NCBI GenBank assembly: GCA_034520565.1
Contig: JAXHNL010000002.1
Coordinates: forward strand, 1,184,001-1,248,000
DNA length: 64,000 nt
From: Halodesulfurarchaeum sp.
GTDB lineage: Archaea; Halobacteriota; Halobacteria; Halobacteriales; Halobacteriaceae
Direction of reading: 5' to 3'
Every line of letters starts with the position of its first letter. Position 1 is the first letter of the stretch. The notes beneath the pieces were generated by a model. The model saw nothing but the letters and a program-made list of their open reading frames with translations, was not told the DNA's origin and made no database searches. Below, one piece after another: positions 25,533 through 62,250 of this stretch. The position numbers and the translations under genes are program-made.

Positions 25533-25940
25533 TCAGGCGAGCCGCTCGTGTTCGATCTTCATGCACCTGTCCTGAACGACTCGTTTGCCCTGCGCTTCGG
25601 CGCGTGCCGCGGCCTCGTCGTCCCTGATTCCCAGCTGGGTCCAGATCACGTCCACGTCTTCGCGATCGATCGCTTCCTCGACGATCCCGCTCACCTCCTC
25701 GCTGGGACGGAACACGTCGACGACGTCCACTTCCACCGGAATATCCGAGAGTGAGTCGAAGGCCGCCTGCCCGAATATCTCCTCGGCGAAGGGGTTGACC
25801 GGAATGACCGCATAGCCCTGCTCGATGAGGTAGGCCGGGACCTCGTGTGCATCCTTCCCGGGGGTCGTCGAGCAGCCGACCACGGCGACGGTATCGAGTT
25901 CGAGGATCTCGCGGAGTTCGTCGTCGGTTTCGACGGGCAT
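25533..25940 (-). CDS. CoA-binding protein (YccU-like)
   Basis: VAVVGCS, IPVNP, VDVVDVFR, IWTQLG, VVQDRCM. Confidence 0.92.
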   Translation of the reverse strand: MPVETDDELREILELDTVAVVGCSTTPGKDAHEVPAYLIEQGYAVIPVNPFAEEIFGQAAFDSLSDIPVEVDVVDVFRPSEEVSGIVEEAIDREDVDVIWTQLGIRDDEAAARAEAQGKRVVQDRCMKIEHERLA

Positions 25941-26087
25941 GCCATGGAGAACGGCCGGTCGAGGAAAAAGTGTGCCGCCGAATTCGTGGGATTTCGGGCA
26001 CCGCTTCGTCATGCTCGGTGTCCAGGCCGGATCTGCGTGTGACAAAACCGTTCGACTTCTGGAGGGAAAGCCGGTACCCCTGGCCAA

Positions 26088-27107
26088 TTATGCCTCCGTG
26101 TCCTCCGAAATATTGAGTCCGGCGACGAGCCTGGCCGTGATTACCTGTTCGACGATATCGATCAACTGGTCATCATCGGCCGTGAACTCGGCGAAGATCC
26201 CGAGCGGGATTTCCCCGCCCGCCATGTCGTAGTGGCCACCGGCGCTCCCGACATCCCCAAAAGCGGCATCGAGTACGTCCCCGAGGTGCACTCGGGGATC
26301 CGGTGACCGGCCACTGAGATGGATGGACTCGCCGATGATGCCAAAGACGATGGCCGTATCGACCCCTTCCAGAGTTCCCAGGTAATCTGCAGCCTGCGGG
26401 AGCGCATCCCGTTCGGTGGTCCGGCCGACGTGTGAGATGAGGACCGACCCCTTGATCATTCGGTTCTCGATCGCCGTCCCAATCGCGTCGAGCGTTGCCC
26501 CAGTGACCGATGGTGACGACAATTGCTGGAGCAGCTTCACATCAACGTGTTCATGTAAGACCGCAGCCGCTTCGTATTCTTCGCTGGTCGTTCCACGGAG
26601 GAAGTCCAGGGTCTCGCGCCGAATCGCAAACAGGAGTGCCGTTGCAAGCACCGCGTCCATTTCGACGCCCAGTTCCCGGATGTATCCCGTCAGCATCGTC
26701 GCTGCAGCGCCGACTTCCTCCCGGTGATCCACGAATCGAGCTTCGATGTCTTCGGCGGGGTGGTGGTCGATTACGATGTCGATGGTCGTTCCCGGCGGAA
26801 CTCGGTTATTCACACCTGGAACCGAATGGTCGACGAACGCGACCAACGACCCGTCCGTTCGGTCCTGTAGTGTCGCGTTTTCGAACGGTTGAAGATCGAT
26901 ATCGACCAAATTGACGAACGCCCGGTTTTGCTGGTGGGAAATGTCCCCGCTATAGAAGATATTCCGTTCGTCGATGCCCGCAGCAGCCCCGATTCGTCCC
27001 AATGCGAGTGCACTTGCCAGGCAATCCGGATCCGGGTTGTTGTGACAAATGATGTTAAGCTCGTCCCCCTCGGCCAACAGTTCGTGAAGGCGGTTTGCTT
27101 TGCTCAT
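26088..27107 (-). CDS. DHH family phosphoesterase
   Basis: HNNPDPD, VDH, IDHH, SAGGH. Confidence 0.92.
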   Translation of the reverse strand: MSKANRLHELLAEGDELNIICHNNPDPDCLASALALGRIGAAAGIDERNIFYSGDISHQQNRAFVNLVDIDLQPFENATLQDRTDGSLVAFVDHSVPGVNNRVPPGTTIDIVIDHHPAEDIEARFVDHREEVGAAATMLTGYIRELGVEMDAVLATALLFAIRRETLDFLRGTTSEEYEAAAVLHEHVDVKLLQQLSSPSVTGATLDAIGTAIENRMIKGSVLISHVGRTTERDALPQAADYLGTLEGVDTAIVFGIIGESIHLSGRSPDPRVHLGDVLDAAFGDVGSAGGHYDMAGGEIPLGIFAEFTADDDQLIDIVEQVITARLVAGLNISEDTEA

Positions 27108-27208
27108 GTGTGGTCGTACGGCTGCAGCCGAGTTAGTAGTGACCGGTCATGTGACGGTTTCATCCGGAGCTCCGACCGACTCCCGCTGACACTCCGCTCT
27201 CGTCACGT

Positions 27209-28018
27209 TCACTTCGCGCCGCGAACGACGTGCCCATACTTCAATACAGCGACGAAGAACGCCCCGCCGACGGCGTTCCCAAGCGTTGCCAACACCTGGA
27301 AGGACAGGTAATCGGCGAGGGACACGGACGGGGACATGAAGAGTCCGAAGAGGACCTCCACGTTCCCGGCGATGGAGTGTGGCAGATGGAGAATGCCGAT
27401 CGTCGCCGCGACGATCCAGATGATGAAAATCCGGCTGATCGTCTCCTGTGCGGCGGTGATCAACCAGGCCATCAGTCCCATCAACCACCCGGCGAAAATG
27501 CCGGCCACGAACAGCCAGGAAAGGTCGTGGCTGACGAGTTTGTTCGCGATAGTTCCGAACGCTTCCGGCGAGACCACGCCGAGCCCCGGCATGAGCAACA
27601 CCGCCAAGAGCGTGAAGAAGGCGCCACCGACGATATTCCCCACGTAGACGAGTCCCCAGAGCCGACCCAACTGGCCGAGCGACGCCTGTCTGTCGAGGAC
27701 CGGAATCACGGCTAGAGTGGTGTGTTCCGTGAACAGTTCGGACCGACCGAGGATGACGAACATGAACCCCACCGCGTAGGCGCTGGCCAGGAGGATTTCC
27801 GTCGAGAGGTCCCCGAAACTCCCCTCGGACAGGGTCAAAAGCACCGCCATGAGGAGCGGTCCGAAGCCGATGTCGAGCCCGGCGGAAAAGCCGGAGAGCA
27901 ACAACCCCGACCGTTCCCGCTCCATCTCGTGTAACCCACTTTCGATCAGCGAATCGAGGACCGCCGCTGACGGCATCTGTTGCATGTGGGCCAACGTCTC
28001 GGTGTCTTCTCGGTCCAC
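27209..28018 (-). CDS. Formate/nitrite transporter family protein
   Basis: SELFTEHT, LPHSIAG, TLGNAVGG motifs; start (GTG 28018) uncertain. Confidence 0.88.
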   Translation of the reverse strand: MDREDTETLAHMQQMPSAAVLDSLIESGLHEMERERSGLLLSGFSAGLDIGFGPLLMAVLLTLSEGSFGDLSTEILLASAYAVGFMFVILGRSELFTEHTTLAVIPVLDRQASLGQLGRLWGLVYVGNIVGGAFFTLLAVLLMPGLGVVSPEAFGTIANKLVSHDLSWLFVAGIFAGWLMGLMAWLITAAQETISRIFIIWIVAATIGILHLPHSIAGNVEVLFGLFMSPSVSLADYLSFQVLATLGNAVGGAFFVAVLKYGHVVRGAK

Positions 28019-28710
28019 AGATCTCTCCCCATCCAGATATCCAAACGAAACGGCACAAAGCTTTCCCTTGGTGCACATCGAGATCGGAGCCGGTACCGCT
28101 TCGAAGCGAACAGTGCACCCAGCCAATGGAAACCGGGCACATGAGCCGGTGGCATCGGAACCGTCAGTTCGCTCGAGTGACTCAGTCGCGGCCACGAAGC
28201 TATTCGGTCGGCGGACAGTTTTCGCCCTCGAATTCGTCGTGTCGTTCTGTTGGTTCCAAATTCGCTTCGGCCGAGTCTCACTGCAAAATCGACGATAACG
28301 CCGCTCGCTCCGGGTAAGGATACTGCACTCACTCGATCAAACGGAAATTCGCCGCATCGACCGGCCGCTTACAAAGGTAACAGCCCGTTTCGAGCATGTC
28401 TTCGCGGACGGCTTCGTCGACGAGGGGGGCCATCCCACAGTGTGGACAGGCAAATCGGTAGTTCGAGCCACACGATTGTTCGATATGTCTTAGTTGTCAT
28501 AATCTGGAGGTGGACGCGAGTAAATCTCCCACCGCACATTGTGGCCTTCCACGAACGGTGACGTTTTTAATCGCGGGCTGACGCTTTTTGGTTCCTGCCC
28601 AATCGATTGAGGTTCTGATGGGTGACACGATACCACCGTTTACCAGTAGAAAAGGGAGGTTTCCCTAAATAACCGAGAGTGGACGAGACAACGGGTTTAT
28701 ACCGGGAAGC

Positions 28711-28895
28711 GGTCGAACGGGATTGAAACCCGATGGCGAATCCGAACGCAGTGAGGATTCGCGTGGCTCAAATTTCTTCCGTGTGCGCTTCGCTCGCTCA
28801 CATGAGTTCGCTCGTTGCAGTGCTTGTGGTTCTACCGCTCGCAAAATCGAGACACTCGCTTCGCTCGTGTCTCGCATGCTCGACGGGAATTCACC
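28711..28895. repeat. Distal copy of the tRNA-Glu-associated structured repeat
   Basis: Near-identical to segments of 30084-30406 (e.g. gcaaaatcgagacactcgc..gtgtctcgcatgctcgacggga). Confidence 0.9.
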
Positions 28896-28976
28896 ACGAG
28901 ATTCACGGCAAATCAACTGCACGGATCAATTCTCCCGGCGAAACACATTTGTAACACAGTATATTAATATGTATAC

Positions 28977-29279
28977 GTGCCATCGATCAGTGCCCGGATT
29001 CCAGACGACGAAGAGGCGGAAATCCTGGAGGTAATCGACATCCTCGGTGAAGACAAAAGTACGGTGATCCGAAAGGCTCTCAGCGAGGGTCTCGGCTCGC
29101 TCAGAGAGCGCATCGCCATCCAACGGTACCAGGCTGGTGAGATATCGGTCAATCAGGCTGCACGGCTGGCAGGCGTGAGCATCGCGGAGTGGCTCGAGAT
29201 TGCCCGCGAACACAACCTCACCACACAGCTCAAACCTGACGATCTCGATGCTGATGCTGATGCTGCTCGGGAGCTATGA
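28977..29279 (+). CDS. UPF0175-family antitoxin (RHH + HTH)
   Basis: ISARIPD..DKSTVIRKAL; YQ.GEIS..QAARLAGVS. Confidence 0.85.
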   Translation: MPSISARIPDDEEAEILEVIDILGEDKSTVIRKALSEGLGSLRERIAIQRYQAGEISVNQAARLAGVSIAEWLEIAREHNLTTQLKPDDLDADADAAREL

Positions 29280-29800
29280 CTCGGATATTTCTCGATGCCA
29301 CCACGTTGATCAGCCTTGGTTCGCTCGGCGAACTGGAGTTGCTCACGAATTTCTCCGGGGATCTGGTCGTCCTGCCAGCGGTGCAATCTGCGGTCGATAC
29401 GGAGCCAGCACGCACGAACCTCGAGAGCTTCCTCGAATCACACGATATCCAATCTGGAGGTCACGAGTATGCAGATCAAATTCCCCGGGCGCTGTCACTT
29501 CTCGAGGAATCAGAGAGCAATGGTGACGTGGAAATCATTGCAGCAATACTCACTCAACGAGCGGACGATAGACCTGCCGGAGTAGTCTCGGATGATCGGC
29601 GAATCAGGACCACCGCCGATGCCTTCGGAGCGACAGTGACGGGAACAATCGGTGTGCTGGTTCGAGCCGTCGAGGCTGGAGTCGAGGAAGAGGACGGACT
29701 CGATATCCTCGAGCGGATCGATTCGCGTGGACTTCATATGACCGGTGAATTGCGAGAAAAGGCCGAGTCGCTGATTCACGAAGCGGCCGAAGAAAGCTGA
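29276..29800 (+). CDS. PIN-domain toxin (DUF3368/VapC-like)
   Basis: FLDATTLI, GD..II, SDDRR.R, VTGTIGVL; ATGA overlap with the antitoxin. Confidence 0.85.
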   Translation: MTRIFLDATTLISLGSLGELELLTNFSGDLVVLPAVQSAVDTEPARTNLESFLESHDIQSGGHEYADQIPRALSLLEESESNGDVEIIAAILTQRADDRPAGVVSDDRRIRTTADAFGATVTGTIGVLVRAVEAGVEEEDGLDILERIDSRGLHMTGELREKAESLIHEAAEES

Positions 29801-30021
29801 GCCAGTTCTTGGACACACTCAATCTCGAAGTTCGACGACACCAAGCCCTCTTATGACGGACTCGTTCGATGGGTCGCTGCCGCTGACCGAGACGAGATCC
29901 GGGCAATCAATGACTCACTCGATAGCGAGTGATCGCCAAACTGGATGGTGCCACGTGAAAATCTATCTGGATTAGCGCCCACGTGAACCGGGAAACCGGA
30001 CGTTATTCACCGCGAAGCTGT

Positions 30022-30406
30022 TCGTGTGTTCAAATCCTTTCTATGTGCGCTTCGCTCGGGGCAAAACGGTGCCGCTCGCTGCAGTGCTCGCGGTTCCACC
30101 GCTTGCAAAATCAAGACACTCGCTCCGCTCGTGTCTCGCATGCTCGACGGGATTTGAACCCGATGGCAAATCCCCCCTATCGGTCGGATTTGCGTGGTTC
30201 AAATCCCATTCCGGCGCATTTTCTCACTTCGTTCGAAACGTGCTCGCGGTTCCACCGCTCGCAAAATCGAGACACTCGCCTCGCTCGTGTCTCGCATGCT
30301 CGACGGGATTCGAACCGCGATGGCGAATCCTCACTGCGTTCGGATTCGCGTGGCTCAAATCCCTTCCGTGCGCGCTTCGCTCGCTCAAAACGTTCGCTCG
30401 CTGCAG
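30022..30406. repeat. Tandem structured repeat array (about 2.4 units of about 156-167 bp) abutting the tRNA-Glu 3' end
   Basis: Units start at about 30084 and 30240 (gtgctcgcggttccaccgct..) and contain nested inverted repeats. Confidence 0.9.
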
Positions 30407-30481
<75 letters not shown>

Positions 30482-30598
30482 GCATCCGTTCCTATCCCGG
30501 GTTTGTGTATAAAACCGTCGAATCGGTGCCTCCCGGCTCCCAAATCTTTAGCCGGCTCGGAACGTTTCCTGGGGCCGATCCACACCGAGCCGACCGGA

Positions 30599-31945
30599 TT
30601 ACTCCTCGTCGATCTCCTCTTCTTCCTCGTCTTGGCCCGCCTCGTTCACCGTGCGCTTCACGTCGACCTGGTAGTGCTGAAGGATGTCCCGACCGAGGAT
30701 CATCGGGTAGTCCATGTGGGCTCGATCCTCAAGACTCGCTGGAACCGTGTGACGATCGCCGCCGATGCCGACCACGATGTCGACTACCGGTCGGGATTTT
30801 CCAGCTTTCGTGCTGCCCGACCTGACCTTCGTCATGCTCTTGATCGGCCCCGCGCCGATATCTGCAGCGAGTCGGGTGTCGATGCTGGTGCGTGAAGCGC
30901 CGGTGTCGGACTTCGCGACGATCCGCTCGGTTCCGGACGTCCCGCTCACGAGCACCTCCTCGGTGTAGCCGATGGTGCTCCGATCCCGGTCGGGTATCGG
31001 CTCGGTTCTCGTCACTCGTTCCGGCATCGAGTCGTCGAGTACCCCGGAGAGCTGTTCGAGTTTCGATTCGTCGACGGAGGCGCCCGCCGTCTCGATGGCG
31101 AGTTTGGCGATCGCCGCGGCGGGGTTGATTCCGGTCGCATCGAAGAAGCCCCGAAATCCAGCGGTGGGATTGACCTCCAGGAGGTACCACCCATCGACCC
31201 CCTCGACGAGATCGACCCCGGCGTAATCGAGACCAGTCAACTCGGTCGCCTCGATGGCCATCTCCACTGCTTCCGCCGGCGGGTTCTCCACGACCTCGAA
31301 CTCCCCGCCCAGGGCCACGTTCGTCCGCCAGTCGTTGTCTGGCGCGTATCGGCGCATGGTCCCGATGATTTCGCCGTCGACGACGTAGATCCGCAGGTCG
31401 GAGTGGCGCTGGTGTTCGTTCTGCTCGATGAGTTCCTGGAGGAAGGCGTAGCGATCGCCGACCCGCGGATTGACCGACTCGTTTCGGCCGATCTTCCAGG
31501 TCCCGCCTCCGTGTGTGCCGATCGCGGTTTTGTACACCACCTCGTCGCCAAATTTCGTCCGAAGATCGTTCAACCGGTCGACGTCGAGGGCGAGCACCGA
31601 GTCGGGAATGCGGACCTTCGACTCGGCCATCGAAGTGGCAGTGGCGAACTTGTGAAACGCGGTGAGGACGTTCTCGGGCCTGTTGAGCATCGGTCGGAGT
31701 CGCGACAGGCTCTTGCCGAGGCCCAGCAACTCCGCTGGCTGTTCGGTACTCGAGAGCAGAAGTCGGTTGACGATGATATCCACGTCCGGTTCGATCCTGA
31801 CCGATCCGTCTTCGATTTCGACGACCAGGTTGTCACCTCGCAGCCAATGCCCTTCGTGTCCCAGGTCGTTGATGATGTTGAGAATTGCCTTGGATTCCTT
31901 GCTGTTGTGCAAACTGAGGACGCCGACGGAGACCGTCTCGCTCAT
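30599..31945 (-). CDS. RimK-family ATP-grasp ligase fused to C-terminal retropepsin-like (RimB-like) protease
   Basis: DLRIYVV, WRTNVALGG, GVDL, LEVN; C-terminal AKSDTGA..SID and ILGRD. Confidence 0.9.
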   Translation of the reverse strand: MSETVSVGVLSLHNSKESKAILNIINDLGHEGHWLRGDNLVVEIEDGSVRIEPDVDIIVNRLLLSSTEQPAELLGLGKSLSRLRPMLNRPENVLTAFHKFATATSMAESKVRIPDSVLALDVDRLNDLRTKFGDEVVYKTAIGTHGGGTWKIGRNESVNPRVGDRYAFLQELIEQNEHQRHSDLRIYVVDGEIIGTMRRYAPDNDWRTNVALGGEFEVVENPPAEAVEMAIEATELTGLDYAGVDLVEGVDGWYLLEVNPTAGFRGFFDATGINPAAAIAKLAIETAGASVDESKLEQLSGVLDDSMPERVTRTEPIPDRDRSTIGYTEEVLVSGTSGTERIVAKSDTGASRTSIDTRLAADIGAGPIKSMTKVRSGSTKAGKSRPVVDIVVGIGGDRHTVPASLEDRAHMDYPMILGRDILQHYQVDVKRTVNEAGQDEEEEEIDEE

Positions 31946-32048
31946 ACCGGAACCAGGGGTGCAAAGGGGATAAACGGCCCCCTCCCGCGGTCCGATTTGG
32001 GACCGCTACGGGACAACGACTTAAGCCCGGCGAGACGATAGGGAATGC

Positions 32049-62167: not shown

Positions 62168-62250
62168 GCGCGGGTAGCCAAGTGGTCAACGGCGCAGCGC
62201 TTAGGACGCTGTGGGGTAGCCCTCCGCAGGTTCGAATCCTGTCCCGCGCA
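62168..62250 (+). tRNA. tRNA-Leu (TAG)
   Basis: GCGCGGGTAGCCAAGTGGTCAACGGCGCAGCGCTTAGGACGCTGTGGGGTAGCCCTCCGCAGGTTCGAATCCTGTCCCGCGCA; long variable arm. Confidence 0.96.

Follow-up and report, generated by a model that had tools for sequence, protein, structure and literature searches.

According to passages of three published accounts, haloarchaeal elements of the SNJ2 type and others with a tyrosine integrase are bounded by direct repeats of a transfer RNA (tRNA) 3' end, with a core of 12-22 nt, and leave the tRNA intact (PMC5861418, PMC3119063, PMC7002104). Integration at a 14-bp tRNA 3' core by SNJ2-type integrases, widespread in haloarchaea, is reported as experimentally established (PMC5861418), and partial tRNA copies of 22-57 nt as well as deletions between repeats are described in haloarchaeal genomes (PMC3119063, PMC7002104). 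Here we analyse a 64-kb window (the whole stretch of DNA studied, G000:C2:1184001-1248000) of a haloarchaeal chromosome with 62% G+C, which belongs to a genome of 2 contigs and 1.86 Mb with a completeness of 81%; positions are those of the window unless a contig is named. Downstream of its tRNA-Glu(UUC), an array of small hairpin units spans 28708-30405 and holds a toxin-antitoxin (TA) cassette of the UPF0175/PIN type. In contrast to the elements above, this cassette measures ~1.1 kb, has no integrase or replication gene, and carries an inverted-T-loop hairpin at its attachment (att) end.

A similar build-up of islands at tRNA genes is known from streptococcal cis-mobilisable elements, left by integrative elements, and chromosomal integron arrays contain toxin-antitoxin cassettes. 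In the tycheposon islands of Prochlorococcus, as parts of their description have it, newcomers push older elements outward, partial tRNAs and remnants lie scattered, and integrase-less cargo is found between att copies (bioRxiv 10.1101/2020.12.28.424599); here, however, most modules are gene-free and 100-160 nt long, every module contains a structured hairpin, and the arrangement extends to ~40% of the tRNA genes in the genome. Integrons, including those of archaea, share with our locus small cassettes between imperfect hairpin sites, TA cargo and arrays that often have no integrase nearby (bioRxiv 10.1101/2022.02.06.479319, whose main text has 0 mentions each of Halobacteria and tRNA), but our locus has neither IntI nor attI, uses the tRNA 3' end as its anchor and carries a tRNA-specific tail in the site. 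As for attC, each unit consists of imperfect hairpins nested in one another, and its outer arms carry AAC..GTT; Rfam matched tRNA only. The nearest published category to the hairpin units is that of the enigmatic small mobile repeats (SMR) of Haloquadratum, which, like the palindrome-associated transposable elements (PATEs), are described in passages of PMC3119063 as transposase-free, 80-110 bp long, with inverted ends, no target duplication and a strong target preference. The likeness is one of description, and the SMR target IS605-type palindromes rather than tRNA ends. Our units share with SMR and with miniature inverted-repeat transposable elements the combination of inverted ends and multiple dispersed copies. 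In the open-access papers searched, with the supplementary att alignments of the SNJ2 paper outside the search, no published description of such hairpin/tRNA-end units in haloarchaea was found.

We consider it probable that the UPF0175/PIN pair is an integrase-less cassette that was placed by att-type site-specific recombination and has been kept through addiction. On this view small modules would have piled up one after another behind tRNA-Glu(UUC), and the tRNA 3'-end copy of each module, preceded by a hairpin, would act as an att core. The TA pair would be a module with cargo (about 28877-29985) directly behind the third unit, placed by recombination of the tyrosine-integrase type at a tRNA-end copy and catalysed in trans. 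Newcomers would enter at the tRNA-end copy and displace older modules outward, and the array would also have grown through tandem duplication of a 156-nt block. Most modules would have shrunk to spacers of 40-80 nt, and the TA cassette would persist because a toxin-antitoxin pair penalises its own loss. At the level of DNA, genome comparison shows the anatomy of the array, sites that are empty or filled otherwise, the same cassette at three tRNAs, bounded by tRNA-end copies, and integrase elements in this genome with tRNA-end cores of 12-13 nt. The cargo seen so far (UPF0175/PIN, HicA/DUF7387 and Fic/DOC) is all of toxin type, which fits retention by addiction. An integrase presumably moved the cassette.

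Anatomy of the array and borders of the cassette

Read in the sense of the tRNA, the module plan is a spacer of 34-47 nt, a hairpin (H) of 57 nt and a copy of the tRNA 3' end (O). Three parts make up hairpin H: the T-loop region in inverted copy, an inner stem of 8 bp that carries a loop of 11-12 nt, and a direct copy of the T arm. These spacer-H-O modules alternate with a 56-nt module (M), which has its own 7-bp hairpin and the end ..GCGAGCA; ..GAGCA is the terminus of every module in the array (Table 1). A module of the M1 type also stands directly after the tRNA-Glu in two relatives, G008 and G004. The first-pass annotation, made from the letters of the window, had proposed such a repeat array interrupted by the UPF0175/PIN pair (28977-29800), and both points hold: Tandem Repeats Finder detected a 156-nt period with 2.0 copies and 84% matches at 30084-30393, a period given by units 1 and 2, and nhmmer matches go down to E 7e-57. 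The motifs that it quoted lie where it had placed them, with the plus strand of 28875-28890 differing by one base from the quoted string. The member of repeat family D4 at 30030-30058 has 83-86% identity to the two other copies. The inner hairpins of units 4 and 1 (28736-28762 and 30323-30349, pair I1) have identical 8-bp stems and 11-nt loops that are exact reverse complements, and the stem in unit 2 (30160-30195) is preserved via changes on both sides. A scan of 28000-31000 with Rfam (E <= 1) gave the tRNA, two sub-threshold chance matches and nothing else. The unit was also considered by eye as a tRNA-like cloverleaf, a reading that was dropped with the 5' acceptor partner absent.

Regarding the junctions, the pair had been thought to split a single unit and to occupy the position of its inner hairpin. 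Formal alignment gave another result. Unit 3, on the tRNA-proximal flank, is homologous down to ~29986 to an intact unit behind the tRNA-Glu(UUC) of G008 (L030:7629-7723, alignment A2), and BLAST aligned the same unit with window positions 30161-29997 (77% over 168 nt, E 6e-27). The homology covers the spacer, the inverted arm, the whole inner segment and the degenerate T-arm copy. The flank is thus nearly a whole unit that has kept its inner segment, and the inner hairpin has not been exchanged for cargo. The cargo begins with the T-arm/3'-end copy of unit 3 or immediately behind it, where the unit's own 3'-end copy is truncated, and brings along its own degenerate hairpin and 3'-end copy. 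The comparison supports the view that the site takes cargo as a hotspot, with the likely insertion point at the tRNA-end copy and not in the hairpin loop.

On the distal side, array sequence amounts to only 12 nt (28877-28888). A block from 29932 to 28885 is shared with the TA loci of G002 and G006 (82% and 81% over ~1050 nt, BLAST), and because this block includes them, positions 28889-28960, with the second copy of the 11-mer ATTCACC(A/G)CGA found near both junctions, are assigned to the cassette. In alignment, these positions correspond to the 3' half of a unit of another subtype. The TA cassettes of G002 and G006 share the conserved distal end, and a HicA cassette of G007 has a similar one; despite their different cargo, alignment A3 matches the ends of the TA and HicA cassettes to one another and also to the 3' half that ordinary units have (..GATTTGCC..ATCG.G.T..AATCCC followed by O), with a 7-nt insertion. 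From the homology of unit 3 and the cassette-borne 28889-28960 it follows that the two 11-mers are one copy of the resident unit and one copy of the cassette. The motif CGGGAA flanks the 11-mer at both places (28884-28889 and 29989-29994). A direct repeat of this length with <=1 mismatch appeared in 33 of 2000 shuffles of the 70-nt junction windows, which were chosen after the fact. The 11-mer may mark the crossover region, or it may reflect resemblance between unit subtypes.

Table 1. Array behind tRNA-Glu(UUC) and parts of the TA cassette, in tRNA-to-distal order (window positions)
Feature	Position	Strand	Remarks
tRNA-Glu(UUC), array anchor	30407..30481	-	ARAGORN (one extra 3' base, 30406); Rfam tRNA 53.4 bits
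Unit 1	30297..30406	-	spacer 30363-30406, hairpin H1 30306-30362, diverged tRNA 3'-end copy 30297-30305
M1 module, 56 nt	30241..30296	-	7-bp hairpin, end ..GCGAGCA; repeat family D1
Unit 2	30141..30240	-	spacer, hairpin H2 30150-30206, 3'-end copy; H2 stem altered on both sides relative to H1
M2 module	30085..30140	-	
Unit 3 (subtype B)	29986..30084	-	spacer 30038-30084, inverted T-loop arm 30028-30037, inner segment 30002-30027, degenerate T-arm copy 29986-30001
11-mer copy, tRNA-proximal	30005..30015	.	in inner segment of unit 3; then CGGGAA at 29989-29994
Cassette, tRNA-proximal part	29801..29985	+	29801-29932 conserved with G002 and G006; 29933-29985 not shared
PIN-like toxin candidate, 174 aa	29276..29800	+	DUF3368 E 0.0052, below Pfam cut-off
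UPF0175 antitoxin candidate, 100 aa	28977..29279	+	Pfam PF03683, 38.7 bits against a cut-off of 27.9, E 8.2e-10
Cassette, distal end	28889..28976	-	AT-rich promoter-like stretch and degenerate hairpin half (..GATTTGCC..TCGTGGTGAAT)
11-mer copy, distal	28889..28899		within cassette distal end
3'-end copy closing the cassette (TCCCGTCGAGCA), 12 nt	28877..28888	-	
M3 module	28821..28876	-	
Unit 4, array end	28708..28820	-	spacer, hairpin H4 28720-28776, degenerate 3'-end copy; families D2 and I1

The cassette has three small reading frames, none of which encodes a recombinase, tyrosine or serine. The first product scores as a member of the UPF0175 family and is a candidate antitoxin; its stop overlaps the start of the second gene by 4 nt. 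That the second product is a PIN-like toxin candidate is moderately supported. D7, E43, D84 and D106 do not vary among six aligned homologues, and VapC PIN toxins fill the Foldseek list obtained with its AlphaFold (AF2) model (probability 0.97-1.00, TM score 0.44-0.60, none at E <= 0.001), a model built from a shallow alignment with a predicted local distance difference test (pLDDT) score of 68. A sequence search of the PDB with the toxin gave a single irrelevant match (E 0.28), and NCBIfam held no family for the UPF0175/PIN or HicA/DUF7387 proteins. The locus resembles type II TA pairs of the VapBC kind in its order (antitoxin gene first), in the overlap of 4 nt and in a candidate PIN-like toxin whose four acidic residues are invariant and whose predicted structure is like that of VapC; it differs in that the candidate toxin lies below the Pfam cut-off and has no NCBIfam model. 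The pairing of UPF0175 with a PIN/DUF3368 partner is known from comparative-genomic surveys. After the toxin, a short reading frame within 29801-29932 ends ..AAADRDEIRAINDSLDSE*; it has no settled start codon and no Pfam match, and its conserved end ..AAADRDE.R.I.D.LDSE is common to the window, G002 and G006. A second cassette in G002 begins with a similar AT-rich leader.

The same locus and the same cassette in relatives

We compared 30 relatives, all of which match parts of the region, and six genomes of the genus (the one analysed here included) could be read downstream of tRNA-Glu(UUC). In G008, G004 and G010 only units and M modules are found there (in G010 across contig ends, with a circle assumed). 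G007 has ~1 kb with HicA (PF07927, E 4e-9) and DUF7387 (E 3e-19), and this cassette sits behind a unit of the same subtype as unit 3 and is closed by a tRNA-Glu end copy. G001 has HicA/DUF7387 and then UPF0175/PIN, with decayed borders and no core copies, and the genome of the window has UPF0175/PIN. Filled, differently filled and empty sites thus occur among the six genomes, as expected from the earlier suggestion that this locus takes up cargo and favours toxin-type modules, and the proposed check for an empty site or other cargo in close relatives came out in its favour. In four further relatives (G005, G011, G009 and G003) a contig ends at or near the array.

The same TA cassette, with 71-82% DNA identity, was identified behind tRNA-Glu(CUC) in G002 and G006 and behind tRNA-Gly(GCC) in G005. 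A complete hairpin unit with its O precedes the cassette in G002 and G006, and the conserved end ..TCGTGGTGAA with a second O closes it; in G005 the cassette comes after the hairpin unit of tRNA-Gly(GCC). The insert is therefore enclosed by two tRNA-Glu end copies in G002 and G006, and in the window by the distal copy and a degenerate proximal stretch. The PIN toxins are 83% (G002), 83% (G006), 74% (G001) and 54% (G005) identical to that of the window, and the neighbouring RimK proteins 88% (G007), 81% (G005), 78% (G006), 78% (G001) and 75% (G002). That toxin identities do not track those of RimK is a hint of mobility, drawn from one gene and not from a tree. The tRNA-Glu(CUC) gene of G002 (L027 7928-8150) has an intron-like insertion of ~45 nt in the anticodon region and is not called by ARAGORN.

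Outside the genus the picture is different. Relatives of the toxin, taken as one genome per species, gave 48 loci, of which 46 were analysed (the partial L160 and L161 were dropped). The hairpin pattern is present at 3 of the 46, the same three being relatives already seen, and a tRNA lies within 1.5 kb at 3 of 46. The TA family is therefore ordinary and widespread, and its tie to the arrays is specific to this lineage. The check proposed earlier, whether homologous TA pairs elsewhere are flanked by the repeats, came out positive within the genus (G002, G006 and G005) and negative beyond it.

The variability of the locus reaches past the array. Between the array and a conserved CoA-binding gene (25533-26087), positions 26088-28195 of the window hold a formate/nitrite transporter and a DHH phosphoesterase; the equivalent region (L029, L026) has only a GNAT gene in AT-rich DNA in G007, and a heavy-metal ATPase pair in G001. 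The variable island therefore exceeds the TA cassette. In G020, from another family (L036 652-2468), a formate/nitrite transporter gene (58% identity) lies directly before a homologous UPF0175/PIN pair with no tRNA or repeat. Transporter and TA pair are neighbours in the window too, but divergent, which may be coincidence or an old linkage.

Hairpin units and integrase elements in the genome and the class

The first-pass annotation had described the platform at tRNA-Glu; the genome-wide and class-wide distribution shows that it is not peculiar to this tRNA, with units standing behind many tRNAs. A copy of the tRNA's own 3' end occurs downstream of 17 of the 44 tRNA calls in the window's genome and upstream of none (0/44), as scanned with the last 20 nt, <=4 mismatches and a distance within 3 kb; the copies are mostly 77-150 nt away, and a few of the ARAGORN calls are dubious. 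With a relaxed hairpin pattern we identified 19 distinct units, all with inverted ends of 10-12 nt. Seventeen of them are within 400 nt downstream of a tRNA and on its strand, and the other two are in an integrase island. At the tRNA-Leu(UAG) of the window (62168-62250), three spacer-hairpin units extend through 62700 and end in copies of that tRNA's 3' end (0, 0 and 2 mismatches in 20 nt). In G001 and G010, 15 of 16 loci have a tRNA with hairpin units after it, and in almost all of these a 3'-end copy stands behind the units (19 loci were returned and 16 examined, three overlapping ones being left out), with up to five units behind tRNA-Ser(UGA). Across the class, the exact pattern is present in 167 of 301 genomes sampled, and the reversed-pattern control gave 0 in every genome.

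Inner hairpin parts are nearly identical at the tRNA-Arg(CCG) and tRNA-Ser(UGA) loci, where the spacers are unrelated, and the inverted arm mirrors the local tRNA, copying the whole 22-nt end of tRNA-Gly(GCC) and the unusual T loop of tRNA-Pro(CGG). The apex predicted on the tRNA-sense strand is a C-GNA-G triloop in 25 of 44 rows against TNC in 2, a count that was made with RNA energy parameters and includes two duplicate rows. Mini-hairpins of the d(GNA) and GCGNAGC kind are reported to be unusually stable in DNA (PMC3201870, PMC13037366). A transposon reading with target-site duplication was rejected, no short duplication being seen at the shared hairpin core in three loci compared by eye; at these loci the 20-22-nt tRNA end is repeated on one side of the core only.

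A further cargo in this genome is a Fic/DOC gene (Fic_N and a helix-turn-helix, 385 aa) between the first and second hairpin units behind tRNA-Gly(GCC) (G000:C2:902290-904134, L162). It lies between the tRNA-Gly end copy and the next hairpin unit, and this second unit has an M-like module nested in its loop. Cargo always precedes the hairpin and its core, a layout expected if hairpin and core are the attP of the incoming piece.

Four integrase loci (PF00589) are present in the genome, at C2:58k, 525k, 710k and 1456k. A tRNA missed by ARAGORN and possibly intron-bearing, with its 3' end at C2:516976, is followed by 8.9 kb that end in an integrase (Pfam), an arm and a 13-nt core. Behind this element come a spacer-hairpin-core unit, 4.4 kb of AT-rich DNA, a 3' fragment of an integrase, a core and a second hairpin unit (C2:516900-530700, L163). 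At tRNA-Pro(CGG) a 20-kb element (C2:706770-727012) ends in a 12-nt core and then the resident spacer-hairpin-core unit, whose arms copy the unusual T loop of that tRNA. The arrangement shows that the hairpin units predate the arrival of these two elements. Their 12-13-nt tRNA-end cores match the established integration of the SNJ2 type and the curated haloarchaeal genomes. The integrase gene of the tRNA-Pro(CGG) element has one in-frame TAG at 709.7k.

Hairpins made of tRNA copies are also found in viruses. About 40 unrelated viral contigs of high G+C (about 0.6) have a perfect hairpin of ~58 nt formed by two inverted partial tRNA copies, located near contig ends and ~100 nt from the start of an integrase gene in the loci read in detail (5 of 44). 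Since these contigs have the hairpin beside an integrase, such an architecture may occur more widely, as a feature of certain tRNA-targeting recombination systems. None of the 44 loci returned by the pattern scan of IMG/VR (L070-L113) has a hairpin of the haloarchaeal type.

Alternative explanations and meaning of the arrays

Several observations weigh against a cassette placed by recombination and kept by addiction. Neither the cassette nor the 64-kb window has an integrase, integron-type or other (PF00589 scan of the genome), and on this point the cassette platform suggested earlier is not supported in the form given. None of the integrase elements observed in this genome carries a hairpin in its own arm, and among the units listed for five other hairpin-rich genomes no integrase is found within 2 kb, several being at 14-20 kb. 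Genomes of the family were also scanned for loci in which the cassette end meets a tRNA-Glu core, with an integrase-bearing element in view, and known loci alone came back (8 of 56 genomes with any match). Of the two core copies, the window has the distal one, a degenerate T-arm/CGGGAA stretch (29986-30001) being left of the proximal one, and since the proximal junction has no full core copy, this copy of the cassette may be fixed and no longer movable. The three core copies of the window (..CCCGTCGAGCA) are identical to each other and diverged from the real tRNA-Glu end (..CCCTGACGGAGCA), so they can, by their sequences, only have spread through duplication inside the array and not through three integrations. 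Finally, the evidence as a whole is comparative DNA, and the TA pair is presumed to be active and stabilising. Nine sequencing runs were listed, none of them of RNA. Contigs of the runs X1, X2, X9 and X8 over 27000-32000 include none that skips the cassette and no circular junction, although such contigs drop rare variants; small skips inside the array are of low likeness and may stem from other organisms.

One alternative, possible but not likely, is that the TA pair is the last remnant of a larger provirus or plasmid at the tRNA-Glu end, which decayed by deletions between repeats and never moved as a 1.1-kb cassette. Addiction modules are expected to outlast the decay of an element, and larger integrase elements do occur at tRNA ends in this genome. 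The flanks of the G001 cassette have decayed and hold no core copies, and a passage of PMC3119063 documents deletions between partial tRNA copies in haloarchaea. However, the same ~1.05-kb block (28885-29932) with the same distal end is found at another tRNA in G002 and G006, bounded by two cores, and a cassette with unrelated cargo (HicA) ends in a similar way; that separate decay events should stop at the same borders is less likely than that a small unit moved.

We regard as rather unlikely the idea that the hairpin units serve, as dedicated recombination sites, a separate cassette system run by an enzyme other than the classical tRNA-end integrases. It would accommodate the sense-oriented units behind tRNAs throughout the class, inverted arms that follow the peculiarities of tRNA-Gly(GCC) and tRNA-Pro(CGG), inner stems that differ by changes on both sides, the excess of C-GNA-G apices on the tRNA-sense strand and the similar hairpins beside viral integrase genes. 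It would also fit the position of the cargo, always before hairpin and core, a layout to be expected from a hairpin attP and equally from a folded single-stranded site such as those of the CTX phage and integron attC. Yet an ordinary double-stranded attP with a hairpin in its arm gives this layout as well, the apex count depends on RNA energy parameters, the viral contigs with the exact pattern have no haloarchaeal-type hairpin, Rfam gave nothing beyond tRNA, and no candidate enzyme was found.

It is improbable that the TA pair is the older element, around which the repeat units spread afterwards, whether through tandem duplication or through insertion. Units are indeed duplicated locally, as the three identical diverged cores and the 156-nt period attest, and the more distant G001 has the TA pair at the same RimK/tRNA-Glu(UUC) locus. 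Against this order of events, G007, the closest relative with the locus resolved (RimK 88%), has other cargo and no TA pair, G008, G004 and G010 have no cargo, and the PIN toxin of the window is closer to those of G002 and G006 at tRNA-Glu(CUC) than to that of G001 at the same locus. A mis-joined assembly of this repeat-rich, metagenome-assembled region is scarcely credible, for although the contigs of relatives often break at arrays, Logan contigs of run X1 (probably the source sample, and so not independent) bridge both junctions at 100% identity and the TA pair stands next to a unit in four other assemblies.

Integration at tRNA ends by att-type recombination and retention through TA pairs are already known; beyond this textbook knowledge lie the miniature cassettes that have no integrase, and the ubiquity of the hairpin units. 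The former are gene-sized cassettes with only an addiction module and an att end. The latter appear as stacked, empty modules of 100-160 nt behind ~40% of the tRNA genes of the genome, and their conserved hairpin at each tRNA-end copy is present in more than half of the 301 class genomes sampled. As a speculative extension, which we consider rather unlikely, Halobacteria may possess a tRNA-anchored cassette system in which hairpin landing pads behind ~40% of tRNA genes receive small integrase-less cassettes, among them TA pairs and a Fic protein, stacked by a trans recombinase and possibly on folded single-stranded DNA. The pads would mimic the duplex of the host tRNA gene from T loop to 3' end and would take up their fold on the tRNA-sense strand. 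If true, this system would do functionally what integrons or hairpin integration of the CTX type do, and would leave the tRNA gene itself intact. In practical terms, the arrays break short-read assemblies, several contigs of relatives ending there, and tRNA-end copies could mislead the calling of provirus borders. If the units are recombination sites, they would explain why small accessory genes of haloarchaea gather beside undamaged tRNAs, and they would offer a simple, testable substrate for archaeal site-specific recombination.

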